Origin: Felis catus
Lineage: Eukaryota
Direction: 5' to 3'
Length of the DNA stretch: 64,000 nt
Assembly (NCBI RefSeq): GCF_018350175.1
Contig: NC_058368.1
Location: 62,001-126,000, forward strand
The notes below the pieces were generated by a model. It ran no database searches. It saw nothing but the letters and a program-made list of their open reading frames with translations, and was not told where the DNA came from. The position numbers and the translations under genes are program-made. Positions 10,163 to 50,625 of the stretch are shown here, one piece after another (the first letter of the stretch is position 1; every line of letters starts with the position of its first letter).

Positions 10163-10193
<31 letters not shown>

Positions 10194-10213
10194 CACACAC
10201 ACGTGCATGCATA

Positions 10214-11807: not shown

Positions 11808-11861
<54 letters not shown>

Positions 11862-13204: not shown

Positions 13205-16200
13205 GTGTATGTGTGGTGTTTGTGTGACATGTATGTATGTGGTATATGTGTGAATTATCATTGTGTTTGTTGCATATGTAGTGTATGTGTGGTACACGTA
13301 TTGTGTGTACATGATGTATATTCAGTGCATGTGTATTGTATATGTGTGGTGTGTATGGTTAGTATACATGTGTTGTATGTGTGTTGTTTGTGTGTGGAAT
13401 AAATGTGTGGTGTGTACGTGGTGTAAAAGTGATGTGTGTGTGCAGAATAATGATAATAATAATAATAAATGTGTATGTGGTGCATGTGGTGTGTGTGTTG
13501 TGTTGGTGTGGTATTTGTGTGATGTATGGTGTGTGTGTGGTGTATCTGTCCTGTGTGGTATATGTGTGGTGATTTGGTGCAAATATGTGTGATGTTCACG
13601 TATATATGTATAGTGTGTGCACTATGTATGTGCACGGTGTATGTGATGTGTTTGTGTGTGGTATATGTGTGGCATGTTTGTAGAGTATGTTGGTGTGTGT
13701 ATTGTGTATATGTGTTGTATGTGCGGTGTATGTTTGGTGCCTCTGGTACTTTTGTGGAGTGTCTGTGGTATGAATATGTTGGTTTTTTGGTATATGTGTG
13801 TTGTATGTGCTGTGTGTGGTCATTTTGTGTGAGGAAGTATGAGTGTGTGGTGCATGTGTGATCTATGTTGGATATTTTTGTGGTATAAACAAGGTGAATG
13901 AGTATCGTATATGTGGTATGTGTGTAATGTATGTATGATGTATATGGTGTATGTGTGGTATGAGTGTGTATGTGGCACTTGTGTGGCAACTGTGGCTTGT
14001 GATATGTGAGTTGTGTGTGGGGTGCATGTGTTAAATGTGTGATGAGTATGTTGTATGTGTGGTTGTATGTGCTGCATGTTTGATAATTGTGTTAGTTTGT
14101 GTTATCTGTGGTGTGTGTTTGTGGTAGTTGCATGTTGTGCGTGGTAGTTTTGTGTTTTGTATCTGTGCTGTGTTTTGGCATATGTGTGGTGTGTGTACAG
14201 TGTATGTTTGATGTCTATGTGTTGTATGTTTAGTTTGTGTTGGTATATCTGAGGTTAGTATGCATTTGTGTGGCATAGTTTGTTACATATAGTGTGTATA
14301 TGGTGAGTGTGTGATATGTCTGGTGAATGTGTGCTCTGAGTGTGCTGCCTGTGTGGGGTTTGTGGGTTTTCTCTGTGTTGTATGTGTGCAGTATGTGTTG
14401 AATGTTTTGTATGTATGTGTGTGCGGTATGTGTGGGATGCATAGGGTTTATGTATGGTGTGTATGTGTGTTGCTTTCCTTTGGTATACATGTGGTGTTTG
14501 GACAAGTGTTATATGTGTGGTGTCTTCAGGGTATCCATGTTGTGTGTTTTGGTGGTATATTTATTACGTGTGTGTTGTGTATGTTTTTTGCGTGTGCTGT
14601 ATGTTCAGTGTGTATGTGAGGTGTATGTGTGTTTCTGTGTGGTGTATGTAAAGTATGTGTGTTGTTTATATGATGTGTGGGTGTGGAGTTTGATGCATAT
14701 GTGTTATATGTGTGGTTAGTGCTTGTGCATGTGTGGTGTGCATAGTATGTTGGTAGTGTGTTGTGAATGTGTGGTTACCATGTGGTGGATGAATTTTGTT
14801 TGTGTGGTGTATATGTAGGTAATATATGCATGGTGTATGTGTTATGTTGTGTGAAGTGAGCGTGGTATGTGTCATGTATGTGTGCTGTTAGTGATATACG
14901 TGTATGGGTCTTGTGTTTTATATGTGCAGGATTTGAGTGGTACATGTGTGTTGTATGTGTGGTATGTATTTTTGGTTTGTATAATGTGTTGTGTGTGTTT
15001 GGCATGTATATAGTGTCTGTGTAGTATAAGTGACATTCATATATGGTTTACATGCACTGTAAGAGTATATATGTTGTGTATATGTGGTGTATGTGTAGTG
15101 TATGTGTGGTGTGTGTTGTATATGTGTGATCTGCATGTTGTGTTTCTGTGTTTTATGTGTGATGTGTGTATAATATGTGTGTTGAGTTGTGCAGCATATG
15201 TATGGTCTTTAAGTTGTGTATGTGTGGGTTGTGTAGTGTCTTTGTGGTATGAGTGGTATACAGGTAGTGTGTTTTATGTGGTATAAATGTTCTGTGTGTA
15301 TGGTTAATTTGGGTTATCTCTCTGTGTATATGTATATGTGTGTATGTGTGTGGTGTGTCTGTGATGTGTGCAGTGTATGTCTGGTGTGTGTTGTGGTATG
15401 TGTACAGTGTGTATGATGTGTGTGAGGAGTTTCTGTCTATGGTATCTGTGTGGTGTCTGTGTGGTGTGTGTGGTATATGTGTCATGTTTCTGAATGTGAT
15501 GGTGGTATATATCTGTAAGTTTTATAGCTTATGTGTAGTGGGCTTATATGGTATATGAGGTGTGTGTGATGTGTTTTGTACATGTGTGGCATATGTGTGT
15601 CTCATGTAGTGTAGGTGTTGTGTATATGTAGTGTGTGTATGGCATGTGTAGAGTGTTTTTATGTCTGCTTTGTGTGTGATGTATGTGTGAAATGTGTGCT
15701 GCATCTCTAGTTTATGGTGTTTGTGTTTGTGTGGTTTGTGTATGTGACATATGTGGTGTGTATGTGGTGTGTGTGAGGTATATGTGCGGTGTATGTGTGA
15801 TGTGTGTGGTGTGTTTAATTGTGGTTGAAGTGTGTTGTATATGTAGGATGTGTAGTATATTTTGGCATGTGGTTTTATATATGTGTGGTGTGTTCGTGGT
15901 GTAATTATGATGCACGTGTGGCTTATTGTTGTATGCGCATTTTTTCTGTAGTTTATGTGTGGTACCTGTGTGGTATGTGCCATATGAATTGTGCATGTGG
16001 CATATGTGTGCTGTGAGTAGCATGTTTGGTTTGTGTGTCTTCTGATGTATATGTGTGGTTTGTGTTTTTGGCATATATGTGCACATTTTGTAGTGTATGT
16101 GTGGTGTATGTGGTATATGTGATATGTATGATGTGTGTTTGATGTATAAGTGGTGTGTGTGGTATATGCATAGTTAATGTGTGGTGTATATGTTGTGTAT

Positions 16201-17544
16201 GTGTGGTGTGCTTGTGGTGTGAATGCAGAGTATCTGTGTTTGGTATGTTTATGGTGTTTATGGGAAAAACGTGTGCTGTATCTGTAGATTTTTTCGATGC
16301 CTGTGAAGTTTGTGTGTGTGTGTGGTATATGTGTGCTAATGTGTGTGATGTGTAGTATATGTGTTGTGCATGTGTGGAGTAGGTGTGATTTATGTGCAGT
16401 GTGTGACATGTGTGAGTGTGGTGAAATTGTGGTGTATACATAGGTGTGTGTGGTGTACATTTGTTGTGTGTGACATACATGAGTTGTATGTGTGGTATAA
16501 GTCTGTTACAAGTGTGTTCTTTGTGTGTTGTGTGTTTGGTATTGTGTGGTGTGTTTATGATGCATCTTTGGTGTGTGGTATATATGTGCTGTGTGTGTAT
16601 GGTTATTTGTGGTGTTTTTGGGGTATATGTGGTGTGTATGTGATATGTATGGTATGTGTTTGGTATGTGTGGTTGGTGTTTGTTGAAAGTGTTTTTTGTG
16701 TGGTGTATATGTGGTTTTATTGAAGTGTGTGTGTGTGTGATGTGTATGTGTGGTATATATATTATGTGTAGTGTAGGTGAGTGTGTAGCTTATGTGTTTG
16801 TGTGTATTGAGGGAGTGGTATATGTAAGTAATATACACTTGTCATATGTATGGTGTATGTGAGATGTCTATGCATTATATGTGGTGATTGTGTGGTATAT
16901 GTGTATTTTATGTCTGGTTATTGTGTGTGATGTGTATGCTGTGCAGTGTATGTGTGCTATTTGTGTTGTGTTTAGTTTGTGTGACATGTGTGTAGTGTAT
17001 GCATGGTTTGTGTTTGTGGTATATGTGTGCATGTTTTGTGACATGTGTGGTATGTGTGTTTGTGTATGTTATTTGTGTTGTGTGTGTGGTTAGTGTGTGG
17101 TGTCTGTGTTGTGTATCTCTTATGTGTATGTTATGCATGTTTGTGTAATATACATCTTGTATGTGTGGTGTGTATATAGTGTTTGTGGTATATGTGTAGT
17201 GTTTCTGTCATATATTTGTGGGATGTGGGAGCTATATCTCTAATATATGACTGGTACTGTGTATTGTGTGTGGGGGAGGTTATGTGAGATTTATATGCTG
17301 TGTATGTGTAGTGTGTGTTTGGCCTGTGCATGCAATGTTTTTCTGTGTGGTATATGTGAATTGTGTGTGTGGAATGTGTGTGCGATTTGTGTGTGTGTGG
17401 CAGATGTGGTGTGTGGGGGTGGTGTACGTGTGGTATGAATTGGTGTGGGTGTAGTGTATATCTGTGGTATTTGTGTTGTGTATGGTGGTGTGTAGGTGTG
17501 TGTAGTTGTGGTATATGTGTGTATATGAGTGGTGTGTATGTGTG

Positions 17545-20500
17545 TAGAATATATAATTGCTCATAATATTCTCTTATTGTTTGTATTTCTGTGGTGTTGG
17601 TTGTGATCTCTTTCATTCATGATTTTATTTTATTTGGGTCCTTTTGTTTTTCTTTTTGATAAATCTGGCTAGGAGTTTATCAATTTTGTTAATTCTTTCA
17701 AAGAGCCAGCTCCCGGTTTTGTAGATCTGCTTTTTTTTTTTTTAATCATTGGTTTCTGTTCTAATCTTCATTATTTCCCTTCATCTGCTGATTTTTGGCT
17801 TTATTTGCTGTTCTTTTCCTTGCCCCTTTAGGTGAAAGGTTAGGTTGTGTATTTGAGACCTTTCTTCTTTAGGAAGGCCTGGATTGCTATATACTTCCCT
17901 CTAATGACCATCTTTGCTGCATCCCAGAAGTTTTGGACTGTTGTGTTTTCATTTTCATTTGCCTCCATGTTATTTTAATTTCCTCTTTAATTTCTTGGTT
18001 AATCCATTCATTCTTTAGTAGGATGTTCTTTAATCTCCAAGTATTCATGGTCTTTCCAAGTTTTTTCTTGTGGTTTATTTACAGTTTCATAGTGTTATGG
18101 TCTGAAAATATACATGGTATTGTCTCAATCTTTTTGTACTTGTTGAGGACTGACTTGTGACCCAGTTTGTGATCTACTCTGGTGAATGTTCCATGTGCAC
18201 TTGAGAAGAATGGGTAGTCTGTTATTTTAGGATGAAACGTTCTGAACATATCTGTCCAGTGTGTCATTTAAAGCCATTGTTTCCTTGTTGATTTTCTGCT
18301 TAGATGATCTGCCCATTGTTGTAAGTGGGGTGTCGAAGTCCCCTACTATTATGGTATTATTATCAATGAGTTTCCCTATGTTTGCCATTAATTTATTTAT
18401 ATATTTGGGTGCTTTCAAGTTGGGAGCATAAATATTTACAAGTTAGATCTTCTTGGTGGATAGACTCCTTAGTTATAATGCCCTTCTTCACCTCTTGTTA
18501 CAGTCTTTGTGTTAAAATCTAGTTTGTCTGATATAAGTATGGGTATTCTAGCTTTCTTTTGATGTCCATTAGCATGGTAGGTGGTTCTCCATACCCGTAC
18601 TTTCCATCTGCAGGTGTCTTTAGGTCTGAAATGAGTCTCTTGTAGACAGCATATAGATGGATCTTGTTTTCTTATCCATTCTGATACCCCATGTCTTTTG
18701 ATTGGAGAATTTAGTCTATTTACATTCAGAGTGATTATTTAAAGATATGAATTTAGTGCAATTGTGTTATCTGTAGAGTTGGTGTTTCTGATGATGGCCT
18801 CTGGTCCTTTCTAGTCTTTATTGCTTCCCTTGTAGGTTAAGGACTCCCCCCCCCCAACCTTGCTGCTTTCTTAATTCATTCCTTGTCAGTGTAATTTGTA
18901 AATTTGACTATGATATGTCTTGGTGAGGTAGGTTTTTGTTGAATTTAATAGGTCTTCTCTATGCTTCTTGGATTTTGATATCTGTGTACTTCCCTAGATT
19001 AGGAAAGTTTTCTACTATAATTTGCTCACATAAAACTTCTGCCCCATTTTCTCTTTCTGCATCATCCTATGATTCTAATGTTATTCCTTTTTAATAAGTC
19101 ACTGAGTTCTCTGTCTTGTATCATGATCTTTTGCCTTTGTTTCCATCTTTTTTCTGCTTCATTATTTTCCATAATTTTATCTTCTATCTCACTGATTCAC
19201 TGCTCTGCTTCATCCATCCTTGCTGTCAAGGCATTGATTTGAGATTGCTTCTCAGTTATAGCATTTTTAATTTTGGCCTGACTAGATTTTCATTATTTTA
19301 CCTCCACAGAAAGGTATTCTCTGGTGTCTTCTGTTTTTTTCAACCCTCGCTAGTATTATTATAATCATGGTTTTAAATTCTAGTTCAGACATCTTACATA
19401 TCTCTGTATTAAGTCCCTGGCCATCATTTCTTCCTGTTCTTTCTTTTAGGGTGAATTCTTCCATCTTATCATTTGGAGGAAGAAAAAAATAAATAAAAGA
19501 AGAAATAAAAAATTTAAAAATTACAAACAAAACAAAATAAAATCAGATCAAGGAAGCTATATCCCTGGTGCGTTTCAGTCTGCTTGATGAAAGAAGCTTG
19601 ATAGAATAGAGAAAAAAGAGAAAGGAAAGAAAAAGAAGCTTAAAAAATTAAAGAGTAAAATAGAATAAAATGAAATAAAGAAAATAGAATTAAGTTTTTA
19701 AAAAATTAAAAAAATAAAAAAGAATTTGCTCATTCTGTATCCAAGAAAGGGAAAAGAAAGGAAGAAAGAAAAAAAAGTAAGAAAACAATTTAAGCAAAAA
19801 CAGAAGCAAAGAAAATGAACAAATGAATGAACCAGCAAACACAATGAAACCCAAATGAAGTTATATCTAGTTTTCCCTAGAATTGAATCTTTGAAGCACA
19901 ATATAGTCCATCGATGAAGCAGATGGAAGGATTTGTGCTGGTCTTCTGGGGGATGTGTCTGGAGGTTGCAGTTGGGCAGGGCTTGGTGTAATGGCTCTGT
20001 TCTCCACTTGGTGGTGCTGCTTAGCTTACTGGAGTGGATTCATGTGTTTGAGTGTGAGTGGATGTGCAGGCAGGGTGTGTGCAGGGATGAAAATGCCCTC
20101 ACCCAGCTCCCTAGTCTCTGGCATAGGAACTTTGCACTATCATAGACCTGTGATCAAGCACCTCTCCTCTGTCTCAGGCCTCCATCCACTCCAAGCTGTC
20201 CACCTGCCAGATGGTGCCTCTCTCCAGAGTTTTATCTCAGACAGGGGTGTCTTCAAAACCCCACACTTCTGAGACCCCCACAGCTTGGTCCTGTGCTGAT
20301 TCCCTGGGGGAGAGTCTTGCTGAGCAATGGCCAGGTGCCAGTTTGCCCCAGAAATGTTTGCACAATTGTGCAGTGGCAAAGGTTCAGAGTTTATGGCAAT
20401 CACAACACATACCTGGTGCCAGGTCTCACTGGACTCTTGCATCTTTGTCCCAATACCAGCAAACATGGCTACTCTCCAGGGTCCACTGAGACCTTGACCC

Positions 20501-23755: not shown

Positions 23756-24204
23756 AAGACTTAGAATGTCTTCAGTCACTAAAATTGTATCCTATAGCTA
23801 TCATGTCACAGGCAATACTTGTTTCTTCCTACTGGTCCCTTAATGCTAAATTTTATTCACATTAGATTATTACTTATAATGCAAAAGTAGGGATGAACAG
23901 AGAAGTATGATTTTCTATTTCCTTTATCTCTTATTTTATTGCCAATAAATTTGTATTTAGAAACTCAGTTACTATATCATTGCTATTTCAAAATCAGTTG
24001 ACAAAAATAGAAATAGATATACTCTCAACACAAGCTCTATCAAAGTATCATTCTATCTTCACCATTGATTCAATCACACTTCAATCAAAATAACTAATTT
24101 CAACTAACCAAAACTGTTAGTAATTTTCTACTTTACATTCAACTGGTATTAGTTACCAATAGAAAGCCTAGACACCCAAGTTGGCTGTTTAAAATAATGG
24201 TAAA

Positions 24205-25220
24205 CAAGATGGCTAACCGACACATGAAAATATTCTCAACATCACTCATCATCAGGGAAATACAAATCAAAACCACAATGAGCTACCACCTCACACCTGT
24301 CAGAATGGCTAACATTAACACCTCAGGCAACAACACATGTTGGCGAGGATGCGGAGAAATAGAATCTCTTTTGCACTGCTGGTGGGAATGCAAACTGGTA
24401 CAGCCACTCCGGAAAACAGAAAGGAGGTTCCTCCAAAAATTAAAAACAGAACTACCCTACGCTAGCAGCGCTAGCAACAATAGCCAAAGTACAGAAAGAG
24501 CCCAAATATCCATTGACAGGTGAATGGATAAAGAAGATGTGGTATATATATATACAATGGAGTATTACTTAGCAATCAAAAAGAACGAAATCTGGGGCAG
24601 CTGGGTGGCTCAGTCGTTAAGCGTCCGACTTCGGCTCAGGTCATGATCTCGCCATCCGTGAGTTTCAGCCCCACGTCGGGCTCTGTGCTGACAGCTCAGA
24701 GCCTGGAGCCTGTTTCAGATTCTGTGTCTCCCTCTCTCTCTGACCCTCCCCCATTCATGCTCTGTCTCTCCCTGTCTCAAAAATAAATAAATGTTAAAAA
24801 ATTAAAAAAAAATAATGAAATCTTGCCATTTGCAACTACATGGATGGAATTGGAGGGCATTATGCTAAGGGAAATTAGTTAGAAAAAGACAAATATCATA
24901 TGACTTGGAACTGGAGGGTATTATTCTAAGCAAAATTAGTCAGAGAAAGACAAATATATGACTTCACTCATATGAGGAATTTAAGATACAAAACAGATGA
25001 ACATAAGGGAAGAGAAGCAAAAGTAATATAAAAACAGGGAGGGTGACAAAACATAAGAGACTCTTAAATACAGAGAACAGACAGACAGTTGCTGGAGGGG
25101 TCGTGGGAGGGGGGATGGTCTAAATGGGTAAGGGGCATTAAGGAATCTACTCCTGAAATCATTGTTGCACCACACGCTAACTTGGATGTAAATTAAACAA
25201 TAAATAAATTAAAAAAAAAA
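24205..25220 (+). mobile_element. 5'-truncated L1 3' end with nested Can-SINE (24594-24812)
   Basis: [23 protein letters not shown]...[13 protein letters not shown]1 3'UTR and A tail at ~25195-25220. Confidence 0.9.
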
Positions 25221-29164: not shown

Positions 29165-29470
29165 TTCTCTGTAGATGTCTCTGAACTGCACAAGGGCAAA
29201 CCCTAACCCTAATCCTAACCTTAAACTTAATCCTGACACTAAGCCTAAATCTACCCTTAACTGGTAACTCCTAAACTCTATCCCTAATCCTAAGTCTAAC
29301 CCTAAACCTAACTTCTGGAGAGTTCTCTTAACTGAAGAATAGGAGGCACATACCCTCACCCTAACCCTACTCCTAGCTCTAAATTTAATCCTAACCCAAC
29401 CCCTAACCACTAATCACTAACCCTAACCCTTATTCTAGCCCTAATCTGAACCCTAATCTTAGTTCTGAAG
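29165..29470 (-). repeat. Degenerate telomere-like hexamer array ((CCCTAA)n on + strand)
   Basis: CCCTAACCCTAATCCTAACCTTAA... and CACTAACCCTAACCCTTATTCTAGCCCTAATCTGAACCCTAA in two blocks split by a ~35-bp spacer. Confidence 0.85.
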
Positions 29471-30787: not shown

Positions 30788-31686
30788 TTTTCTAATTTCA
30801 GCAGTTTAGTAAAAGTCAAACACACCTGAAGGCACAATCGAGACAAAGGCAAATCAGAAACCAGAGCTCGCGGGACAGGGCCATAAAATTGCCCAAGGAC
30901 TAGTCTCTTCCGAGTAGGTGCTGCTTTGTTTTACCAGACCTGGCTTTTTCCGGACTTTGCTGGCGGATATCTCCTCCAAGGGGAAGCGCGCAGTGATGGA
31001 GGAAGGGAAGGCGGAGGCAGAGTGGAGCGCCTGAGACCTGGCTAACCCCTGCTGTGAACTCTGGGGGCGGGGGGAGGAGGGTCTAAGAGAGCAGAAGGAA
31101 GGTTTCCATGGGACAGGCCCTCGCCTCAACCCGGGGATCCTGGTGCGCCTCCTCCAAGGCGGCCACGAGGGGGCGCCGCGGCCGCGCCTGCGAACTCACC
31201 TGTGCAGAAGCAGGCACGCGGCTGTTCTCAGCCGGCGGGATCCAGCGGGCAGGTGTGGGTTCGAGCGCGCAGAGCTTCCTGATTTTCGGTCCCCCAGCGC
31301 GGGTGTCCAGGCCCGGGGGGTGGGGTGACTGGCTTGGGGGCTGAGCCCCTCAGGTGGAGCCATCGCACTGTGTCTCCTTGAAACCAGGCTCTGAGCAGAG
31401 AGAGACACAGAGATGTGTGGGCGCTTCTCCGGCTGGGGGACGTCCTCCTGCGTGTCACTCTCAGGCGGGCGCAGCCGGCCCGGTGTTGACCGCCGCGTGG
31501 GCGCCCCGACGGGCGGAGGGAGAGGGAAGACGAGCGGTAAGCAAATCAGTGTGGAGGGGAGAAGACGGAGGAGACCTCCGGCAAGGAGAGGAAGGAAGCG
31601 GAGGGGGGAGGCGGGAAGAGGAGGAGAAGCATCAGACCTGAAATCCGAGGTGGGAGGGGAGCTGGGGGCAGGGAGACCGGGTGTGT

Positions 31687-31938
31687 GGGGCGGGTGGCGG
31701 GGCGGGGGTGAGTGAGAGGAGGCCGTTTGCGGCCTGAACCGGGGAGGCCTTATGAAATGAGGCAGCGGTGGGCGCGGTTCTCGGCGGTAGAATTCCACGG
31801 GCTGTGGAAATTCCAGGGCTGTTGCTTGGATTGCCTGAAGAAGACGTGTGTGTCGGGTTAGGGTGGTTGAGACAGGAGTGGGTGCAGAGGGTTCTGGGGT
31901 GCGGGGAGGCAAGTGACCGTGTGTGTACAGTGTGAGGC
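31687..31938 (+). promoter_or_regulatory. U1-type snRNA Pol II promoter, copy A (GC boxes, DSE-like, PSE)
   Basis: GGGGCGGG boxes 31687-31708; TATGAAATGAGGCAGCG at 31751 (human U1 DSE recalled as TATGTAGATGAGGCAGCG); PSE AAGTGACCGTGTGTGTACAGTGTGAGGC at 31911-31938 (human U1 recalled as AAGTGACCGTGTGTGTAAAGAGTGAGGC). Confidence 0.85.
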
Positions 31939-31965
31939 TGCATTGGGGCGGCGTGAAAGCAAGTC

Positions 31966-32105
31966 ACGCTAATCTGGCGAGAGAGATCATGGTCGGGAAC
32001 GTACTTTTTTCCAGAGTGAGGCATGTGTGTTCCGCCGAGGACCTACTGACCCTCTGTGATTTTCCTCAAGTATGCGCAGTTCGGCTGCGCTTGTGCTCTC
32101 TCGAG
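31966..32105 (+). ncRNA. Divergent U1 snRNA-derived gene or pseudogene, copy A (Sm site deleted)
   Basis: ACGCTAATCTGGCGAGAGAGATCATGGTCGGGAACGTACTTTTTTCCAGAGTGAGGC...CTGACCCTCTGTGATTTTCCTCAAGTATG...TCGGCTGCGCTTGTGCTCTCTC is collinear with U1; follows a PSE; 3'-box-like GTTTAAAGCATCAAAC at 32115-32130. Confidence 0.75.
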
Positions 32106-33027
32106 GTAACTGGTGTTTAAAGCATCAAACGCGTTTTGGTGTTTTGCTGTATCTTTGTTTTGCTTGTCCTTTTAGTTTAAGAGTTTTGCCCCAGCATCTC
32201 AGAGATACTTGTGAATAATCACCAAAATGGCCCTTATTTTGTATATTTCGTTTACTTGTTCCTTTTTTATTTGTAGTTTGTGGTTCATTCTTAGTTTTTC
32301 TTGTGGTTTATGTGCAAGATAACTTAGAGTAACGTTCCTGATGGAGTTTGGAGTGTATTTAAATGATTCGAGTTAGTTTTTCCCTGGTCTTGGTAAAGGA
32401 GATTTTGCGTTTTTGCGTATTTATTTCTGGGGAGGGGGGCGCTAGCTGGTTGGCTGGCCCATGCGCAGGTGCGAGTCAGTTGTAGGTTTGAAAGAAAGGA
32501 GCCAAACGTTTGGCGGGTGGGCAGGCTGAAGCACGTCTCAGGATCCCCTCCTACAGCTCCATCCCGGGGTGGAAATGTCATGGTAAAAATGTGGCTTCCA
32601 CGGGGAGATCTTCCTTGATCATTGGCCCCCATCCGTTCTTTCTTTCGGACATCCATGGTGGGCCCCCTTAGGGCCAGAGCCCTGGCCAGGGTTAGGGTTA
32701 GGTCCCAGGGGGCTCCAGGCGCCGAATCCCCACAGTGCAGTGGTCTCCCCGGAGTGCTGAGTGCAGGACGCGTGGGAGGTTGCTGGTCAGGCTTTGTCTC
32801 CACGCTCAAGGGCCCATCTAGAGTGTGGGTCACGCATAGGTCCGGCCTCATTTTCCTCCTGGCGCAGTCGACGACGCTGCTTTGGAAATGGCCTGGAGAT
32901 CTTCCCAATTCCACGCGGAATCATCCCGCGCTAGTTTTGGGGGGAAAAAGATAGGAGACGGACGATGGGGGGGTGGGGCGGGGAGGAGGAGGAGAGGCCT
33001 GTTGAGTCCTGATAGGGGCCTGGCCTT

Positions 33028-33182
33028 ATGTAAATCAGGCGGTTCTGGGCGGGGCAGTGGAAGTCCCAGAGCTGTTGCATGGATTGTTTTAGGAAGACGT
33101 GTGTGGGGGGTAAGGATGGTTGAGACAGGAGTGGGTTTTGGGGTGCGGGAATGCAAGTGACCGTGTGTGCACAGTGTCAGGC
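33028..33182 (+). promoter_or_regulatory. U1-type snRNA Pol II promoter, copy B
   Basis: Octamer-like ATGTAAAT at 33028-33035, GC box GGGCGGGG at ~33047, PSE AAGTGACCGTGTGTGCACAGTGTCAGGC at 33155-33182; alignable to copy A over ~200 bp. Confidence 0.85.
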
Positions 33183-33217
33183 ATGTGAAGCTATGGTGGT
33201 GGGAGGAAATTAAGGTT

Positions 33218-33364
33218 ATGCTAGCCAGTCAGGAAAAATATTAAGACCGAAAGTAGTAGTTTTTCCAGGGCTGGGCTTCTCCGTTGCGTTTTGTTGTGCT
33301 AGTTATTTCCTCACTTGGTTGTGTGTTTTGTGACAGAAGTGTGCTGGGTTCGTGCTGTTCTTTG
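33218..33364 (+). ncRNA. Divergent U1 snRNA-derived gene or pseudogene, copy B
   Basis: ATGCTAGCCAGTCAGGAAAAATATTAAGACCGAAAGTAGTAGTTTTTCCAGGGCTGGGCTTCTCCGTTGCG...TGTGCT...ATTTCCTCA...TTTTGTGA...CTGGGTTCGTGCTGTTCTTTG is collinear with U1; starts 61 nt after the PSE GTGACC, as in U1 genes. Confidence 0.7.
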
Positions 33365-33899
33365 GTTGTCAAAGAGTTGGAGATCAAATTTTGTGCTGTA
33401 AAGTTGTTGAATTTGGTTTGTGCTTTATTATTTTTTGACAGCAAAGAAAACAGATCCACCTTTAAGAGGAAAGAAAGTGTAACTTTGGTGAAGTTGTTGT
33501 GTGTCTTCCTCTTCCCAGGGAAGAGAAGTTAGTTGGGGTTGGGTGTTACCTGTACAACAATCCCCCCAAAAATCTCAAGACAAAACCCAGACTTCCTATC
33601 AGGCCACTGCATTCGTGTTGGGCCTTCCTTAAAAGACTTTCAGGAGAATACGATTCAATGAGATTGACACACCTCTAAAGAGGCATGGCCACGCGCACAC
33701 AGGATGGGTTTTCACCATCAGCTCTGGGACAGAAGGTGGTGGGCCCTGTGCTTGCTCTAGGGCTTAAGCAAAACCTGTCCTTACAATGCTGCCTTGATTT
33801 GTAAATATATGTTTTAAGGGTTTTCTGGCTTTGTTTTCACTGGGGCTCTGGCTTTCACTCTGTAAAAGTCTCTATTGAGAATTTACATTGATGTTTTCC

Positions 33900-35345
33900 A
33901 ACTTTGGTTTTCACTTAGGGGAGCCACACCATTATGGACTCACAGGAACTGGATTTATTCTCTTGTCTGAAACAATAAAACAAAACCACACAAGATACAC
34001 AAAATGCAGATTTCCAAGATACTGGGCATCAGGCAAAAGAGGACAGCAATTCCACACTTGGAAACACACAGGTGAGCCAAGCCCTACACAATATATGTGC
34101 TGCCTCGAGACAGTTTCCAAGCAAGGTGCAGGGAGGGGAAACTGAAGAGGCCAGTGGACTATGTGGAGTTGAGGACACTGAGCTGAGAGTCCACAGGACA
34201 ATGTGATGGGGAGGGCAGAGCTGTGGAAAATCAATTAGCAAGAGCTGTTGGGGGGCCCTAAGTATGCAGCACAGTCCTGCTCTGTGCCTCCATGGGAGGC
34301 AACTCCAGCAAGTCAGGGGGCAATCTTGTGAAAGGGTTAGAGGGAACAGAGCCTGTACCTCAGCACTGGAAATACAGCCTGTTGCCAACAGATAGACTGA
34401 AAAAAGTAACCCTCCTAACTCAGCAGGCAGAACTCAGGGAGGTCTTGCCACAATGTTGGGAACTCCTAATTAGCCCTCTGCTAGCGAGCACTGCTCAGGA
34501 CCACTGAACAAATCATTAAAGCAATACCAGAAATGATCAAACTTTCCAAGTAAATAAATGCATCCCTGGGCAAAGCTCAAAATTAAAGAAAACACAAAAA
34601 AATATCCAGCAACCAAACAAGGTAATATTCACACTGGCCATTCCATCCAAGATTTTGAGGTATGCAAAGCAACAGGAGAAATGACCCTTAATGAGGAGAC
34701 AGTTCAGTCATCTGAAAATGACCCAAAGCTGACACAGATGGGAGAATCACCAGAGGAAGACATTAAGGTGTTTCTTATAACTGCATTCCATCGGTTCAGA
34801 ATGTTCAACAGGTAAATGGAAAATGTGAAAAAGACCCAATCTCCTGTTAAGTGATGAAAACCACAATGCCTGAAGAGAAATATCCTGCAAGGGGTTGACA
34901 GCAACAGAAAATGCAGGAGAAGAACATTTCATAGGACTTGTTTTGAATCTGCAGACCCCTTTGGTTAGTATTGCCCCCCTCACTCTGTAAAATCTAATCC
35001 ATAAACACAGGATGTCTTACTGTTTCTTTAGTTTTCTCTAATCTCTTACAGCAGTGTTCTATAGTTTTCACTGTAAAGGTCTTTGCCTCCTTGAATCAGT
35101 TCATTTCTAGATATTTTATTGTTTTGAGTGCTATTATAAGTGCAGTTGTTTTCTTAATTTCCTTTTCAGATTGGTCTTTGTTAGTGTAGAGAAACACAAC
35201 TGAATTTTGTCTATCTTGTCCTCTGCAACTTTACAGAATTAGTTTATTGACTCTAGTATTTTTGTTTGTGAAGTACTTGGGATTTTTCTCTAGATAGGAG
35301 GATGCCTTCCACAAATAGAGATAATTTTATTTATTCCTTTCCACA
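33900..35345. mobile_element. Ancient L1 fragments (5'/ORF1-like on +, ORF2-like on - from ~34990)
   Basis: GACCCAAAGCTGACACAGATG...GACATTAAGG ORF1-like; TTTCTAGATATTTTATT...TTAGTGTAGAGAAACACAACTGAATTTTG matches reverse L1 ORF2. Confidence 0.6.
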
Positions 35346-42031: not shown

Positions 42032-42882
42032 GTGAGTTTTCTTTTACTGGAACAGTGGGTAACTAAGAAGGATCATCTAATCTCACAGCAGAGAATGTGC
42101 TTTCTCCTTAGGGAGAAAGAATAACTTTGCATTTAGAACACAGAATTTGGACTCTGTAAACCTATTTCAAATCCTTGACCTGCCTCCAGCAATGATTTTA
42201 AGCAAACTACTCAGTCCTTGAAACCTTAATTTTCCCAGCTGAAAATGAGATAATGTTATGATTTCCCAAAGTTTTTGAGGATTAAATGAGATAATGCACA
42301 TGAAGGACTTTGCACTTGCACAACGGGAGCAATGGTTCTGTCTGTATGATTTCTATGTCAATCAGAGTCAATCAGGGGTTTATGCTTTTTTCAATAAGAG
42401 AAAGTCCTCGGAGATAGGGATGTCAGTTCCACACACAGGAGCTTGGGCACAGCACATGCCCCCAAATCAGCCCTGGAGGAACAGACTTGATTTGTGCAAG
42501 TAATTCTAATCCCTTCTCCATATCATCTTCCCATTGTTTCTATTCAGTAAAATCCATACAAAAGAGGACCTTGTCCTTTTGAGATGCTTGGACACATTTA
42601 TTTCCAGGTTGCATTTTTCCCCCAATTATGTGTATAGATGTAGCTCATGAGAAACGGATATATTTCCAACTTCCTGCTCTTGGCTATTTAACTATGTTCT
42701 GGGATATTCCCTGGAGTTGGTGTTGGAGAAAAGCATGCACATGTTGCTACTGGAGGTAGTCCTTCTGACAGCCTAATAGGGTCTCCTGGAAGGGCCTCAG
42801 TGATCTGGCCTGAGTCTGTCACTGAGATGGCTAGTACTGGGGTTCTCTGAGGACTGATGCAAAATTGAATGTTTCTCTGCAG

Positions 42883-42990
42883 GTGCTTTCTCCTGGAATG
42901 AAACACAAGCCAAACGCATATCAGAGGGCCTTCAGGACCTGTTTGGCAACATCTCTCAGCTTATTGATAAAGGAAGACTTGGTCTCAATG
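42883..42990 (+). CDS. PGLYRP4: PGLYRP4 coding exon 2 (SAFSWNETQAKRISEGLQDLFGNISQLIDKGRLGLN)
   Basis: CTGCAG| acceptor, G|GTGAGG donor; resembles the PGLYRP4-specific N-terminus (human recalled as SSWNKTQAKQVSEGLQYLFENISQL). Confidence 0.88.
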
Positions 42991-43788
42991 GTGAGGAGGC
43001 TTAAGGATAGCTGGGTATCTGCTGTGACCAGTGCTTCTGAGGTCTGCACTGCCCCTTGTGGCTGGTATGAGAATGCATGGGGCTGAGACAGTGGACGGAG
43101 CAAACCACCTGCTAGGATGCCACAGGCCTTGGGGGTCCAGGTGTTATTGGGAGAGGGCAGAAACCAGGACAGGGAGATTCATCCTCTTCACTAAGGACCC
43201 CCTCGCCTGAGGGTGGAGACCTACACCCTGCCCTCAGGGAGTCGTCCAACTGAAAGGGAGAGTCAGGCCATACCTTGAGAGAGTCCCTAGGCTGAGGAGG
43301 AGATATAGTCCCTTCAGGAATCACTCAGAACAGGACAAAGGACACAGAGCCCCAGAGCAAACTGTCAGTGAACATAGTGTGCACTGGGGGCATTAGTGCT
43401 GCCCAGATGGGCCTCTCAGGCTTTCCCCGGGGAAGCAGTGGGAAGGAGCTGCTTCCTGAAAGCAGGGGTCCTAGAGCAGAGCAGGGCAGGAGCTGCAGGA
43501 TGGAGTCTGTCCCAGGTAGGGATGCCCTGTATGAGGGAGCAGAGCATCCAGGCTTCTCTGGACAGGTGCATACTCTGCAATGGGAACAGCGGAAGGGATG
43601 TGGAGGTAAGAAGCAGAGGGTGTGCCTGCCTGCTGAAGGCCTCCTCCCAGGACTCTTCTATCCTCAAGAAGCAGACTCAGCCCAGAATGGCACCCATGGC
43701 CCAGGGGGTTAGTGAGACAGTGATGGAGCAGGATGCGCCGAGTGATAACCTCCTCACCCTTGTGGTTACCCCACTGATGTCTCCACAG

Positions 43789-43978
43789 TGGTCTCTCACA
43801 AGGAGTGGGGGGCAGAAGCTGTTGGCTGCAGCACTCCACTGACCAGGCCTGTGGATTTCTTTGTCACGCACCATGTCCCTGGACTGGAGTGTCACAACCG
43901 GACTGCATGTAGTCAGAGGCTGTGGGAACTCTGGGACCATCATGTGCACAACAACAGCTGGTGTGACGTGGCCTACAA
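43789..43978 (+). CDS. PGLYRP4: PGLYRP4 coding exon 3 (PGRP domain 1 start)
   Basis: VVSHKEWGAEAVGCSTPLTRPVDFFVTHHVPGLECHNRTACSQRLWELWDHHVHNNSWCDVAYN; in-frame acceptor CCACAG|, donor AA|GTAAGA. Confidence 0.88.
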
Positions 43979-45383
43979 GTAAGAGACAAGGGATATGTGA
44001 GAGTACGTGATCAATGATACTGCTTGTGACACTTCTCTTGGCCTTACTCATCTCTGCTCTCCACTTACCAGGTTGAGGTTATATTGGGTTGATATTGAGT
44101 AAAATATTAAACCCCTACAAAATTCCAAATCCTTTTGAATTTTCTGTGAGATCTAAAAGAAAGCAAGGAAGGTTAAGTAATAACTATACGTATATGCCCC
44201 CCCAAACCTAGTTCACATAACACATTGACAGTTACAAATGACTACTGTGTGCATGAATTCATTTGCTCCACCAAGGTTGGTCAGGCATGCATTACTATCC
44301 CCATGGTCCAGGTGAGGGGACTAAGGCAAGGACGTTGTTTGATTTGCTCAGAGTCACACAACTGCAAAGTTGTGGAGCCCAGACTGGCTCAAAACTGGCT
44401 CTTTGCCTGCTGCATGTCCCACTTCACCACATTCAGGGGGCTCCCACTTTGTGAGACATCTCTTACCCTAGTGGCCACTCCAGTGGACCCTTTTAGTGTC
44501 CAGGACCACGTGCCCTTGGCTTATCTCTGACCTCACCCAGTTATGGACAGTCCCTATGCATGGTAATGGCTTCTCACTTCCAGTACCCTCTGCATCTCTC
44601 TGCTTTTCCACTTCAGACTTTCATCATCTCTGATGGTGAAGGGGAGTTAATACCCCCCTGGCAGGCAGGGGTTGTAGATAACTTCCTCAGCCCCTGGCCC
44701 TTCTCAGGGACAATCTTAGGTCCATGTACTCAGTTCCTTGGAAGTTCACCCTGTCTGGTGGTGGGTGGTGGGTGGTGGGGAGTGGGTAATGATTCTAAGC
44801 CCCAGGTGGCCATTGTGAAGCCAGCCCAATTGCATTGCACATGCTTTGTTGGGTTTCTTGCTTCTGACTTGCTCTCCTTGCTCCCTCACTCTGGCTTCTG
44901 GGACCCCTTATCAAATAAACTGCCTGTGTCCGTGTGCTTTTCTGAGGAGCTACTTCCTGAGAAATTTGTGTAAGATAGATCTATGTAAGAGAAATCACAT
45001 GAGCAGCTTACGTGGAGATGACACAGGTAGCATGCATTTTAGAGGAAGGAAAGCCATGTTTGAGGCTGAGAAGAATCTCACAGTGTAATTGAGTCTGTGT
45101 TAGTTACTGTGATGGCACCAGGACCTCTCCTCCTCCTGAGTGTGTAGAATGATTTACATAAAACCTAGGCATTTGAGCAAAGAAGGTAGGCAGTGTGGGG
45201 GTAGTTTCTGAATTCTAAGGGAATATAAATGACTTGGACTATCCATTGTCTGGGACAAGTCCATGAAAATTCCCTGTAGTGAGCACAGCTTGAGCACTTC
45301 TCCCTTTGGAGGTTGGTAAGTGGTTCCTCTTGTGGGATACACCACGGTGCCAGCCACTCAGCCTGTATCTCCCTGCTTCACAG

Positions 45384-45502
45384 CTTCCTGGTTGGAGACG
45401 ATGGCAGGGTGTATGAAGGTGTTGGCTGGAACATCCAAGGCATGCACACCCAGGGCTACAACCACATCTCCCTGGGCTTTGCTTTCTTTGGCACCAAGGA
45501 AG
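45384..45502 (+). CDS. PGLYRP4: PGLYRP4 coding exon 4
   Basis: FLVGDDGRVYEGVGWNIQGMHTQGYNHISLGFAFFGTKE; CACAG| and G|GTAATG. Confidence 0.95.
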
Positions 45503-46744
45503 GTAATGGTCATTCCAGCTGCCCTTCTCCGAAGAGTTACCCACTTCTTTGTTTCCGCACTGACTCTTCGACCTCCTACTTCCCCAATGATCCACTCTCC
45601 TGGAGTTCCCCTCTCCTTTGGCTTCCATGAATGAATGGTATTAGTTCTCTTCCTCCTGCTCTGGTTTCCTTCTCAGTCTCTGAGTTGGCTCCTTTCCCTC
45701 TGACAGTCTCACAGAGGAGGTGCTGTCCAGAGTTCTCTCTGCAGCCTTGTCACCATTATGCACTCATCATGGAGGAATGTGGGCTTCTGCTCTCTTCTAT
45801 CAGTGACTCACATCTTCCTCTCTGGCTCTCACCCTTCTTCAGTGCCAGGCCCTGTTTCCCATTTCTTGCCAGGAACCTCCTCCTCCCATCTCTCTTATCC
45901 CAAGATTTTCTGTATAATTTTTAAAACCACTCTGAGGCCTCCAATCCCTGAGTCCTTTCCACTTTCTTTTATTCTTACTGCTGCCCATTCCCCCCAGCCC
46001 ATGTCCTAGCATACATGCTCCAGGACCATTCCACTGAGTTTGTGCACTCTTACTATTAAAATTCTTGCTCAGATAGTTTCTCACTGTCCCCTCACAATAC
46101 TCTGTGAGAAAATCCAGACAAGTTTCCTGGTTGCTGTTATACAGAGTACAGCCTGAGCTCCAGAGAGGAAGTGACCCAAGGAGAAGAATCAGAAGGCAAG
46201 GCCACACTTTTCTTTTCTAATTTCAGGGTGGTTTCCAGCATGCCAGAGGACTGTGTGTTCAGCTTGGTTTGTTTTTGTGACCACTTATTGCTATCTCAGT
46301 GTCACCCTGTTTCCTCTGGGGTCTTGAGCACATTACATTTTGGAGCCTCAAGTTCCTCTCTATAAATATGGGGCTAATAATAGCATCCACCTCAGAGGTT
46401 TGTGGTGAGGATCAAAGAAGTTAATACAGGTAAAGAGGCTGGCACATGCCTGGAAGGGTGCCTGCCAATGGGAAACCCTGGCCCAGCCAGCTGAGCACTC
46501 CAGAGCATAGTGCTGCCTTCCAGCTCTCCACGGAGAAAGAGCAAAAAATGAAGTCTTATCAGGTCACTGGGAAAGGTCTTCATCCTAGACCAGGTGGATC
46601 CTTGACTTTTAGGCTTTCCAACCTGGGGGATGAGCCAGTTCCCCTCCAACAGCTACGTAGGGGCTGGCAGGGCCTCTCATCCTTCTCCCACAATACCCTG
46701 AAACTCAGGCCAGACCCAGGTTACCACAGATAGCTCTCTTTCAG

Positions 46745-46897
46745 GCCACAGTCCTAGCCCTGCTGCCCTGTCAGCCATGGAGGGTCTGATCTCCTATGCA
46801 ATCCAGAAGGGCCACCTGTCCTCCATGTATGTTCAGCCACTTCTTGTGAAAGGTGAAAACTGCCTGGCCCCTCTGCAGAAGGCAAGTCCTAAGAAAG
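46745..46897 (+). CDS. PGLYRP4: PGLYRP4 coding exon 5
   Basis: GHSPSPAALSAMEGLISYAIQKGHLSSMYVQPLLVKGENCLAPLQKASPKK; TTCAG| and G|GTAAGA. Confidence 0.95.
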
Positions 46898-47547
46898 GTA
46901 AGACTTTCAACCCTACCGGGCCTCCCTTTAAACCTACTCCCCACCCCATGCCCTTATAACTTCCAAATGCCATTGAGAGTGACTTTTTTAGCCAAGCTCT
47001 CATTGGATCCCTTCTGATAGGCAACTGGTCATCCAACTCTGAAACTTTGGGGCTGGTACAATTTGAGACGGACTCTCCAGGTCACCCCTTTATACCTCAG
47101 ACTCCGAGAATGATAGAGCTATGGCATTAGCCTGGTATAATATATGTGTACTAATTTCTTGAGTCAGTCAACAATTAGTCACTGAAGAGATATCATGGAA
47201 TAAAACACATAAGCAGTAGCCTTATAAAGTTTCAACCTAGAGAGTAGAAAAAGACAATAAGCAAATAAGCAAATAAGCAAGTAAAATATTTGATATGTTA
47301 TAAGGTGAAAAGTACTGTGGAGGAAGAAAACATGGAGAGGGATAGGCATCTAACACAGACAAGCACAAAAGCACAAATGCGCATCTTTCTGAATATAAGA
47401 GCCTGAATAACATTGATCGATTGAAGTGCTTAAGTCACCACCTATACTGACTTCAGAGGAAGGGGTTAGTGTAATTCAGGTAATAAACACTAGATAAAAG
47501 GTATATTTGGGGTTTAACAAATTACAACATCAAAACCAGTATAGTTA

Positions 47548-47875
47548 AGGGGCAACTGGCTGGTAGAGCACGTGACTCTGGATCTTGGGGTCATGAGTTC
47601 CAGCACCATGTTGGTAGTAGAGTTTACTTCAAAAAAAAAAAAAAATAGGGGCATCTATGTGGTTCATTTGGTTAAGCATCTGACTCTTGATTTAGGCTGA
47701 GGTCATGATCTCATGGTTATGAGATTGAGTCCCCATCAGGCTCTGCGCTGGGCGTGGACCCTGCTTAAGATTCTCTTTCCCTCCCTCCGTCTCCCTCCCT
47801 CTGTCCCTTCCCTGCTTATGCTGTGCAAGGGTGTGCTCTAGCCCTCTCTCTCTCACTCTCTCTTTCAAAGAAACC
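47548..47875 (+). mobile_element. Two tandem Can-SINEs (short 47548-47646; full 47648-47875) in a PGLYRP4 intron
   Basis: GGGGCAACTGGCTGG...poly-A followed by GGGGCATCTATGTGGTTCA...CT-rich tail. Confidence 0.8.
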
Positions 47876-48439
47876 CAAAACTGACAGTGTAGTTAATAAC
47901 CACTTTTGGCCTTTTCCTGGACTTAATAAGGTTTTAAAGATAATTAGCTCTATTATGTGAAAGCTCTGAGTAAATCTGATCTCTGTCTTTGGATTAGCCA
48001 TCTGCTAATATTAATAATTGCTTACACTGACAGAGTTTTAGGGCTTACAAGTGAGTCTCAAAGACATGCTTTCAGATGAAAATTCAACTGATTTGTCCAA
48101 AAGACCCTGTTATGCATGTACATCCACATATACACAAGACAATCATACAGATAAATAAGTACCCTTTGCTCTTGGGAATGAGTATCCATGTACCCTTAGG
48201 ATCAACATTCACACACTCCTCTGGGTTCTATTTTAAGGTTAGATCCCATGTCTATGATTCCTGCCTTTTGAATCCAATCCTACCATGCAGATATACCCCA
48301 CTACCAGGTGGGCTTTCCTGAGTTCCACAGTCAGGGTTAGGTCAGGATGTCCAGATGGCATGGGGATGTTCAGTATTGAGGTGGTTGGCATGAGTGGGCA
48401 CGAGTCCACACGTTGATGTTTTCTGGCTCCCCTCCCCAG

Positions 48440-48638
48440 CTTGCTCCAACATTGTCCCTCGATCTGCATGGGAGGCCAGGAAGACGCACTGTCCCAAGAT
48501 GAACCTCCCAGCTAAGTATGTTGTCATTTTCCACACCGCTGGGAGAACCTGCATCATGTCTGATGAGTGCCACCTGCTGGTCCAAGATATCCAGTCCTTC
48601 TTCATAGACAGACTGAATTCATGTGACATTGGGTATAA
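48440..48638 (+). CDS. PGLYRP4: PGLYRP4 coding exon 6 (PGRP domain 2 start)
   Basis: ACSNIVPRSAWEARKTHCPKMNLPAKYVVIFHTAGRTCIMSDECHLLVQDIQSFFIDRLNSCDIGYN; CCCAG| and AA|GTAAGT. Confidence 0.95.
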
Positions 48639-48861
48639 GTAAGTGGACCTGAGGATATATAGGCTTCTTTTACCTCGGAGCAGACTCTGAACCTTCGAAT
48701 GGGAGACAAAGGAAAGTAATGTTTACTGAGTGCCTGCCATATGAAAGGTGCTCCATCTATGACCATGTTGATTTTTCACACAACCCTAGGTGAGCCTTAC
48801 TTAGGATATAGCTAATGGGGTGGTCATTCTCCTTGAATATGTTCTCAAAATGTGTCTATTT

Positions 48862-49069
48862 TTTTAAAGTTTATTTATATGTTTTTAGAGAGAGTGAGCG
48901 AGCATGAGTGCAAGTGCAGGAAGGGCAGAGAGAGAGGGAGAGAGAATCCCATGCAGGCTTTCCACTGTCAGCAGTGCCCGTCAAGGGGCTGGATCCCACG
49001 AACCATGAGATCATGACCTGAGCTGAAATAAAGTCAGATGCCTTACCAACTGAGTCACCCAGGTGCCCC
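48862..49069 (-). mobile_element. Can-SINE
   Basis: T-rich tail, body ends CCCAGGTGCCCC; TSD TCAAAATGTGTC. Confidence 0.88.
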
Positions 49070-50406: not shown

Positions 50407-50625
50407 GGGATGCCTCGGTGGTTCAATCAGTTGAGTGTCCAACTTTGGCTCAGGTCCCGATCTTGCAGTTTGTGAGTTAGAGCCCTGCATCAGGCTTGCT
50501 GCTGTCAGTGCACAGCCTACTTCCATCCTCTTTCCCTCTTTCTCTGCCCCTCCCCAGCTTGCATTCTCGCTCTCTCAAAAATAAGTAAACATTTAAAAAT
50601 TTTTAAATAATAATAATGATAAAAA
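50407..50625 (+). mobile_element. Can-SINE
   Basis: GGGATGCCTCGGTGGTTCAATC head; TSD AAAA(T/C)AGATGC. Confidence 0.88.

Follow-up and report, generated by a model that had tools for sequence, protein, structure and literature searches.

The window (the whole 64-kb stretch of cat DNA that was analysed) carries two plus-strand units about 1.25 kb apart, each made up of a promoter block followed by a body collinear with U1 snRNA. The best reading of the pair is a very old tandem remnant of a U1 gene duplicated at the DNA level, by the class I pseudogene route. From sequence comparison, the snRNA-type promoter appears to have evolved at about a quarter of the rate of the RNA body. The account as a whole, in which DNA-copied U1 remnants with dead bodies, a lasting promoter and a lasting CpG island give rise to an unstable non-coding RNA, is one we hold to be reasonably probable.

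Layout of the two units and their CpG island

A repeat finder gave direct repeats at 31799–31883/33052–33136 (85%) and 31886–31938/33130–33182 (89%), with a spacing of 1244–1253 nt. When unit A was compared with the whole window by BLAST, its sole match besides itself was the promoter block of unit B, and the spacer (32130–33010) was not homologous to the sequence preceding A or to that following B. Both results bear out the paired, 1.25 kb-spaced arrangement described in the first-pass annotation. Units A and B can also be aligned in the DSE region and in the 3′ flank.

The conserved promoter block of unit A spans about −167 to −28 (31799–31938, plus strand) and includes the PSE at 31910–31938. 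That of unit B lies at 33052–33182 on the same strand, with its PSE at 33154–33182. The two blocks are identical at 113 of 131 aligned bases (BLAST E 8.5e-34); the alignment has 140 columns and an identity of 80.7% with its 9-nt gap counted. A PSE pattern derived from both copies has exactly two matches in the window, at 31913 and 33157 on the plus strand, and none of 100 shuffles reached two. Within the block, GGAAATTCC and GGAAGTCCC may be kB-like or ZNF143-like elements.

From the start of the PSE to the body there are 56 nt in A and 64 nt in B, distances that we counted as agreeing with an expected value of about 55 nt. A TATA box between the PSE and the start site would make such a promoter Pol III; the TATA motif is absent from this interval in both units, which fits a Pol II type promoter. 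A generic PSE consensus is matched at 9 of 12 positions, a level that does not discriminate because it is reached 313 times in the window. The sequence used for comparison with human was a primer printed for a human U1 cassette, taken as human U1-promoter sequence (the printed primer being the part of PMC10047704 drawn on). PSE A agrees with it at 19 of 21 bases and is the only site in the window that matches it with three or fewer mismatches (0.01 expected by chance), while PSE B agrees at 17 of 21 by our own count. The earlier figure of 26 of 28 bases for PSE A in common with human U1 could be followed over the 21 bases of the primer, where the agreement is the 19 just given; the full 28 extend beyond it. 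The window's PSE pattern had no match in the metagenome, genome or viral contigs searched, a 21-nt stretch of the promoter block had none in the viral contigs searched, and a literature search with a 13-nt piece of the PSE returned only an unrelated plant paper.

Further upstream, at about −190 to −215, lie GC boxes and an octamer-like element. The DSE-like region of unit A (31687–31765, plus strand), which aligns to that of unit B, contains GC boxes, including a full Sp1 consensus at 31699–31708, and the 7-nt octamer-like ATGAAAT at 31752–31758, one base short of an octamer. In unit B (32967–33036, plus strand) there is a GC box, the G-rich element of the region being GGGGTGGGGCGGGG, and the octamer-like ATGTAAAT at 33028–33035 (7/8). 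At the other end of unit A, 3 nt past the body, GTTTAAAGCATC (32115–32126, plus strand) agrees at 10 of 12 positions with the 3′ box consensus GTTYN0-3AARRYAGA, as it is worded in the part of PMC5493778 used here. This is weak evidence, since 169 matches of at least 10/12 occur on the plus strand of the window over the four spacings. No match at this level follows body B, and the only one, at 33325, sits inside the body. The promoter elements had been described as intact, which is overstated: the octamer falls one base short in A and is 7/8 in B, no 3′ box match of at least 10/12 is in place in B, and the PSEs agree with the generic consensus at only 9 of 12 positions.

CpG islands were called with minimum values of 200 bp for length, 0.5 for GC and 0.6 for CpG o/e. 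The main part (30801–32140; 1340 bp, GC 0.62, CpG o/e 0.74) covers a G-rich upstream region and the promoter and body of unit A, and second and third parts that satisfy the same thresholds (32361–32660 and 32701–33120) extend over the spacer and the upstream portion of unit B. Elsewhere in the window, whose overall CpG o/e is 0.16, there is no island. The retention of CpGs noted earlier is thereby confirmed, and it extends to body A, which has ten CpGs and an o/e of 0.97. That a body so much changed (it departs from U1-invariant positions at 36 of 105) has kept ten CpGs argues for a long unmethylated state of the island. The richest part of the island sits upstream of the U1-like units, and it is possible that the upstream half (31000–31700), or else an exon on the minus strand, is the true promoter and by itself maintains the open island. 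A consensus 5′ splice site, CAG/GTGAGT, is found on the minus strand within the island (31195–31203, donor at 31201) and marks a possible divergent first exon.

The orthologue of PGLYRP4 begins about 10 kb downstream of the pair on the same (plus) strand, with exons at 43749–43979, about 45.4 kb, about 51.8 kb and 52994–53182. S100A9 was sought upstream: the EF-hand loop pattern was absent from all six-frame ORFs of at least 25 aa, and an S100 domain was found in none of the 110 minus-strand ORFs of 17.5–31.2 kb, which gave only L1 pieces.

Decay of the U1-collinear bodies

Control searches with true U1 sequences scored 147–169 bits against the Rfam U1 model (RF00003), for which the gathering cut-off is 69.5 bits. 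At the gathering threshold there were no hits in the 64-kb window. In E-value mode, body B (33218–33364, plus strand) scored 15.3 bits across the full model (E 0.93), body A (31966–32112, plus strand) gave no U1 hit at E values up to 10, even in a 251-nt search, and the whole window contained no further U1 relic. Judged by the covariance model, the U1 identity proposed for the two copies was upheld for B only at a score below threshold, and was not for A. By lenient global alignment the bodies are 67–69% identical to a true vertebrate U1 (L001), a score reached by none of 300 shuffles. Stricter gap penalties leave both bodies indistinct from the rest of the window, and the lenient ones give an unrelated site near 43.7 kb a score equal to theirs. 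A search with nhmmer, using a profile of six true U1s, recovered only the 5′ half of B (33221–33288), as the best hit in the window, at E 0.25. The likeness of the bodies to U1 thus appears faint and weak. The U1 5′ motif identified nine loci in metagenome contigs (L001–L009), whose U1s look fish-like and none of which carries the window's PSE; it had no match in the genome or viral contigs searched.

The 5′ ends of the bodies are altered, reading ACGCTAAT in A and ATGCTAGC in B where U1 has ATACTTAC. The end that pairs with the 5′ splice site, ATACTTACCTG in the six true U1s, is replaced by ACGCTAATCTG in A and by ATGCTAGCCAG in B. Alignment to true U1s agrees in this with the first-pass annotation, which had pointed to an altered 5′ end common to both copies and had suggested that divergence set in before the duplication. 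The latter is borne out by 14 of 105 comparable positions that are derived in both copies, indicating that decay began before duplication; for at least two of these the fish-like reference is probably responsible.

Bodies A and B agree at 59 of the 105 comparable positions and differ at 46, and 22 positions (~21%) are changed in A alone. Each has its own deletions, 25 columns in A, which include the Sm site, and 13 in B, where the Sm region is a degenerate U-rich stretch. Folding of the two bodies is no better than that of shuffled sequence (z −0.55 and +1.50). In the Rfam alignment of B, positions that fail to pair are numerous; a U-rich stretch resembling an Sm site is retained, as is a hairpin-like terminal part. 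With the 5′ end altered, stem-loops lost and the Sm site deleted or degenerate, both bodies are, by their sequences, dead as U1 snRNAs.

Promoter retention and its possible causes

The difference in conservation between promoter and body, 113/131 against 59/105 identical positions between A and B, is significant (Fisher odds ratio 4.9, p 3.4e-7), so the earlier statement that the promoters are better preserved than the bodies was right. In sliding comparisons of 40 columns, identities number 32–36 in the block and 15–26 in the body and 3′ flank. Both mismatches of PSE A to the human primer are also present in B, leaving A with no change of its own in 21 bases.

What has lasted is the snRNA-type core promoter with its PSE, at about −167 to −28, together with a CpG-island state that is probably unmethylated. 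It is probable that the promoter continues to open chromatin and to initiate non-coding transcription: SNAPc would bind the PSE, and Pol II would start on the plus strand near 31966 in unit A and near 33210–33218 in unit B. Since 3′ box cleavage and Sm assembly are expected to fail, the products would be 3′-extended, unstable non-coding transcripts, as opposed to a stable small RNA. Read-through may extend to the first AATAAA that follows the two units (33974–33979, plus strand), a possible end for such transcripts. Any function would reside with the promoter and the open chromatin around it, acting as an lncRNA promoter or regulatory element, and not with the RNA sequence.

Sequencing runs were screened for the share of 253 sampled words from about 2.5 kb present in each, a measure that does not place reads. 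Genomic-looking runs contained 0.98–0.99 of the sampled words, five runs labelled RNA (two studies) 0.51–0.74, and nine runs guessed to be RNA (five studies) 0.43–0.61, some of the latter listed at only 47–134 million letters. That the share stays close to one half suggests enrichment of a defined part, about 1.1–1.5 kb long. In the runs labelled RNA the stretch may be present as DNA, and the runs of small size may come from chromatin assays. Little weight was given to the shares in metatranscriptome runs X1–X3, X10 and X11 (0.8–1.9 thousand million letters), because much host sequence in general may be present in them.

How the promoter came to be kept can be read in more than one way. Selection may have maintained the snRNA-type promoter pair for some 100 million years after the death of its U1 genes, the pair having been co-opted, an alternative already named in the first-pass annotation, as a CpG-island promoter of an lncRNA or as an element regulating the PGLYRP/S100 cluster of innate-immunity genes; we advance this only tentatively, as a rather unlikely case, in which other mammals would be expected to carry orthologues of the pair ahead of PGLYRP4. 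To be set beside it, and in our view just as doubtful, is a neutral history, in which a dying pair of U1 pseudogenes had its block refreshed tens of millions of years ago by a gene-conversion tract (from A to B, or from a nearby true U1), the island being kept by an unrelated promoter at 31000–31700 or by the minus-strand exon. The 140-nt block is kept fairly evenly, beyond the known motifs, its 18 mismatches being scattered along its length instead of falling only in the spacers between motifs, and this even retention, like the size of the block, also fits a conversion tract. The damaged octamer of A, the missing 3′ box of B, the minus-strand donor at 31201 and the upstream position of the richest island part all favour the neutral history as well. 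However, an exchange between A and B cannot explain an ancestral PSE in A, where 0 of 21 positions have changed on their own compared with 22 of 105 in the body, and a conversion in which a true U1 gene was the donor should have refreshed the body as well.

The first-pass annotation had also suggested a lineage-specific, non-spliceosomal small RNA, and this suggestion did not find support. That each unit gives a stable, non-spliceosomal RNA of about 150 nt with a function of its own would be in keeping with a PSE lacking a TATA box at the right distance from each body, the 3′ box-like motif after body A, the 5′ alteration common to both bodies and the Sm-like stretch and hairpin-like part retained in B. 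We nevertheless regard it as highly improbable in view of the 46 differences in 105 positions and the separate deletions, that in A taking the Sm site, of folding no better than shuffled sequence and of the many non-pairing positions in B. Two 150-nt RNAs would moreover account for a word share of about 0.12, far below the half or so of the 2.5 kb present in the runs. Nearly as improbable is that the units form an upstream alternative promoter and first exon of a spliced transcript, for example PGLYRP4. That gene is on the same strand, with coding exons from about 10 kb downstream, and there is no other CpG island near it, and at the end of body A there is a donor-like GAG/GTAACT (~32106). The site is weak, however, and snRNA-type promoters are described in the part of PMC5493778 used here as giving intronless, non-polyadenylated transcripts.

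Relation to known U1 copies

The origin of the pair by DNA-level duplication of a true U1 gene, as proposed earlier, stands: the units carry U1 promoter sequence and no A-rich tail follows either body. Homology to U1 in the flank, in the form of the PSE match to the human U1 promoter sequence, and the lack of retroposition marks place them in class I. Retroposed U1 pseudogenes of classes II and III, which are reported in the part of PMC3561869 used here to have no flank homology to U1 genes, resemble the cat units in their decayed U1-like bodies; the cat units differ in carrying the U1 promoter and in having no A-rich tail.

According to the same part of that study, human class I U1 pseudogenes (vU1) are DNA-level copies that have kept the DSE and PSE, many of them binding SNAPC1 and Pol II (PMC3561869). 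Like these (RNVU1, 1q12-21), the cat units combine 5′ and 3′ flank homology with imperfect bodies that show base changes and deletions. The cat bodies are far more decayed (15.3 bits or no hit against a cut-off of 69.5), making the contrast between promoter and body much stronger, and A has lost the Sm site, which is given in the portion of O'Reilly et al. drawn on as the only motif conserved across vU1 groups. Human U1 pseudogenes are reported, in the part of PMC13573567 used here, to be transcribed, with inefficient cleavage at the 3′ box and degradation of the transcripts by the NEXT-exosome. With true vertebrate U1 genes the cat units share a collinear order of GC boxes, octamer-like element, PSE, body of about 147 nt and, in A, a 3′ box-like motif, and they differ from them in covariance score (15.3 bits or none against 147–169), in the altered 5′ end, in the lost stems and in the lost or degenerate Sm site. 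A further parallel is provided by SNAPc-bound human Pol II loci termed 'U1-like' or 'Unknown', of which seven were novel among about 70 SNAPc sites in the part of the report drawn on (James Faresse et al. 2012, PMC3499247). These too have snRNA-type promoters at loci other than canonical snRNA genes; they were defined by ChIP occupancy, whereas the cat units are recognised here by their sequence.

Pseudogenes of this kind are already known; here the promoter may have outlived its gene. Among U1 copies, the presence of a promoter goes with a good covariance score, as stated in the portion of Hoeppner et al. 2018 (PMC5967550) used here. If the block is under selection, the locus would be an outlier to this rule, would indicate that the core promoter of an snRNA gene can be put to new use once the RNA itself has decayed, and would offer a natural test case for SNAPc-driven transcription where 3′ box and Sm site no longer work. 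Should the block be no more than a conversion tract, the pair would be one more example of class I-type U1 pseudogenes, and even then such copies would exist outside primates, adjoining the PGLYRP cluster. Human PGLYRP4 is at 1q21.3, in the same chromosome arm region as the vU1 genes (1q12-21).

The shared promoter block and its elements

The two probably U1-derived units, copies A and B, lie on the + strand about 1.25 kb apart, a tandem arrangement proposed in the first-pass annotation (30950–33370) and confirmed here by direct repeats and BLAST. The repeat finder paired 31799–31883 with 33052–33136 (85%) and 31886–31938 with 33130–33182 (89%). When each unit was compared with the whole window by BLAST, the promoter block (A, 31799–31938; B, 33052–33182) was the sole cross-unit match, with 113 of 140 columns identical, one 9-nt gap and an E-value of 8.5e-34. 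In a global alignment of the units, A/B likeness upstream of the block is weaker and gappy, reaching into a + strand region of GC boxes and octamer-like motifs (A, 31687–31765; B, 32967–33036), and weak, gappy likeness continues downstream through the bodies (A, 31966–32112; B, 33218–33364) and some 70 nt of 3′ flank. By BLAST, the inter-unit spacer shows no homology to the sequences on either side of the pair (upstream of A, downstream of B).

Each block ends in a PSE-like element, and the two-copy PSE pattern has exactly two matches in 64 kb, a count reached in 0 of 100 shuffles. For the human U1 cassette, PMC10047704 prints a qPCR primer that sits within the U1 promoter; copy A is identical to it at 19 of 21 bases and is the only match in the window at ≤3 mismatches (0.01 expected by chance). 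Copy B agrees at 17 of 21 (counted by hand) and also carries both of A's mismatches. The earlier figure of 26 of 28 nt between the A PSE and the human U1 PSE is upheld only over the 21 bases that this printed primer makes checkable. The generic PSE consensus of the review PMC5493778 is matched at 9 of 12 positions, a level that occurs at 313 places in the window, so that this match proves nothing by itself.

Octamer-like motifs are present in B (ATGTAAAT, 7/8) and A (ATGAAAT, one base short), along with a full Sp1 consensus at 31699. Three bases past the end of body A is a 3′ box-like GTTTAAAGCATC (10/12); no such match is in place after body B, and neither unit has a TATA box between PSE and start. 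Inside the conserved block, GGAAATTCC (A, 31805–31815) and GGAAGTCCC (B, 33058–33067) are sequences that we take to resemble NF-kB sites, B's being alternatively a ZNF143 site core. The 31805–31815 segment of A also has a 24-nt local duplication.

The PSE pattern had no match in metagenome, genome and viral contigs. A search with the U1 5′ motif gave nine metagenome loci, where the U1s score 147–169 bits and have a fish-like look; the window's PSE was found at none of the nine. Three of these contigs (L004–L006), from an aquatic eukaryote source, carry dense snRNA gene clusters, with U1, U2, U5 and U6 inside 1.8 kb on L005 and U6 plus a tRNA on L006.

Probable U1 descent and decay of the bodies

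Both bodies resemble U1 only faintly. An Rfam search at the gathering cut-off returned no match in the window. In E-value mode the covariance model aligned at full length to B (33218–33364) with a score of 15.3 bits (E 0.93; cut-off 69.5), and A was unmatched even with 251 nt searched alone, leaving the proposed U1 identity with sub-threshold backing in one copy. An nhmmer profile from six true U1s likewise had its best window match in the 5′ half of B (E 0.25), beginning where U1 base 1 falls (33218), and had none in A. Lenient global alignment gave both copies 67–69% identity to true U1, a score equalled by none of 300 shuffles and none of 995 real segments taken from the window; in a sliding scan, however, an unrelated, very gappy site at ~43.7 kb scored as high, and with stricter gap penalties neither copy stood out. 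The case for U1 descent therefore rests on position: both weak matches are on the right strand and start 56 nt in A and 64 nt in B past the start of a human-U1-like PSE.

Decay was scored at the 143 columns that are invariant among six true U1s. Among the 105 present in both copies, 45 are unchanged in both and 14 have the same derived base, including the altered 5′ end previously reported as common to the pair; a further 20 are changed only in A, 24 only in B, and 2 differ in both. At least two of the 'shared' changes presumably reflect the fish-like reference, judged by the mammalian U1 sequence. Copy A lacks 25 columns, which take in the Sm site as well as the last stem's 5′ side, and B lacks 13.

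Possible constraint, estimated age and putative transcription

The copies agree at 113 of 131 positions in the promoter but at only 59 of the 105 body positions that can be compared (Fisher odds ratio 4.9, p 3.4e-7); with multiple-hit correction, the block changed about 4 times more slowly than the body. Changes peculiar to A number 0 in the 21 bases comparable with the human primer versus 22 of 105 in the body. Exchange between A and B cannot account for these unchanged bases; the A PSE has either been constrained or been renewed by a true U1 gene. Preservation is fairly even over all 140 nt, beyond the known motifs too, which would also be the look of a conversion tract. Constraint on the promoter is judged slightly more probable than its absence.

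CpG islands occur at three places in the window and nowhere else in it, 30801–32140 (GC 0.62, o/e 0.74), 32361–32660 and 32701–33120, and 127 of the window's 498 CpGs fall within the 2.4 kb of the pair, bearing out the earlier report of an island with retained CpGs. Body A keeps 10 CpGs (o/e 0.97) though 36 of 105 comparable positions differ from U1, and this retention points to a probable long unmethylated history. With ~2e-9 substitutions per site per year as the neutral rate, the divergence of the bodies would represent some 100 million years or longer, so that, barring unusually rapid change in the bodies, the relic should be older than the carnivores. Long purine and G runs occupy 31540–31720 on the G-rich + strand, and the GC skew of that strand is strongly positive (0.33–0.53) at 31400–32100 and 33000–33500, over both units and immediately upstream of them. 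The island also contains, on its minus strand, an exact match to the 5′ splice-site consensus (CAG|GTGAGT, 31195–31203; donor at 31201), and an open frame with an ATG start, running from 31363, precedes it; these may mark a divergent non-coding first exon.

A run search on 30950–33450, with 253 words sampled, listed 24 sequencing runs, 19 with part of the stretch. Five RNA-labelled runs (two studies) contained 0.51–0.74 of the words, nine guessed to be RNA (five studies) 0.43–0.61, some of only 47–134 million letters, and five of unstated kind, probably genomic, 0.98–0.99. That the share stays near one half even in small data sets suggests enrichment of a defined part of the stretch, a putative RNA signal. 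The segment from the start of A to the query end makes up 59% of the query; two 150-nt RNAs would give a share of only ~0.12. Present activity of the promoter is put at slightly better than even. A lineage-specific functional small RNA, suggested in the first-pass annotation, is unlikely; the folding of either body is no better than that of its shuffled versions (z −0.55 and +1.50).

Related pseudogenes and genomic neighbourhood

The units very likely arose at the DNA level from a U1 gene. They fit the class I U1 pseudogenes (vU1 genes), described in PMC3561869 as DNA copies with DSE, PSE and flanks, many of them transcribed; compared with these, the A and B bodies are further decayed, so the promoter stands out more sharply. 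According to PMC13573567, cleavage of class I RNAs at the 3′ box is poor and the NEXT-exosome removes them, and PMC3499247 places SNAPc also on a few loci other than canonical snRNA genes.

Downstream on the same (+) strand is a PGLYRP4 orthologue (42800–53185), of which the exons located do not include the first coding one, with N-terminal PGRP domain exons at 43749–43979 and ~45400–45510, a C-terminal domain exon at ~51842–51967, nearest to solved PGRP-I-beta (68 bits vs 57 for I-alpha), and a last exon at 52994–53182 ending ...WPHFKH*. Human PGLYRP4 is at 1q21.3 beside S100A9; a search of the window for S100 exons found none. PMC3561869 places the human class I U1 pseudogenes at 1q12-21.

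A carnivore-type tRNA-derived SINE, read from the sequence, lies just upstream at ~30700, and the window looks like carnivore DNA. Degenerate telomere-like arrays, (AACCCT)n and (ACCCTA)n with 63–65% matches, at 29199–29456, ~1.5 kb upstream from the island, have the look of an interstitial telomeric remnant. Degenerate simple sequence rich in CA/TG fills about 8 kb at ~9400–17600; it has six-frame ORFs of long H/T/Y or C/V runs and weak, below-threshold Rfam matches to the repeat-derived miRNA families mir-297 and mir-466. LINE-1 ORF2 and ORF1 fragments, with endonuclease- or reverse-transcriptase-like ORFs, occur at 3300–6850, 18470–19070 (−), 24100–24520 and 61130–63000, and Pfam matches fall on minus-strand LINE-1 pieces.
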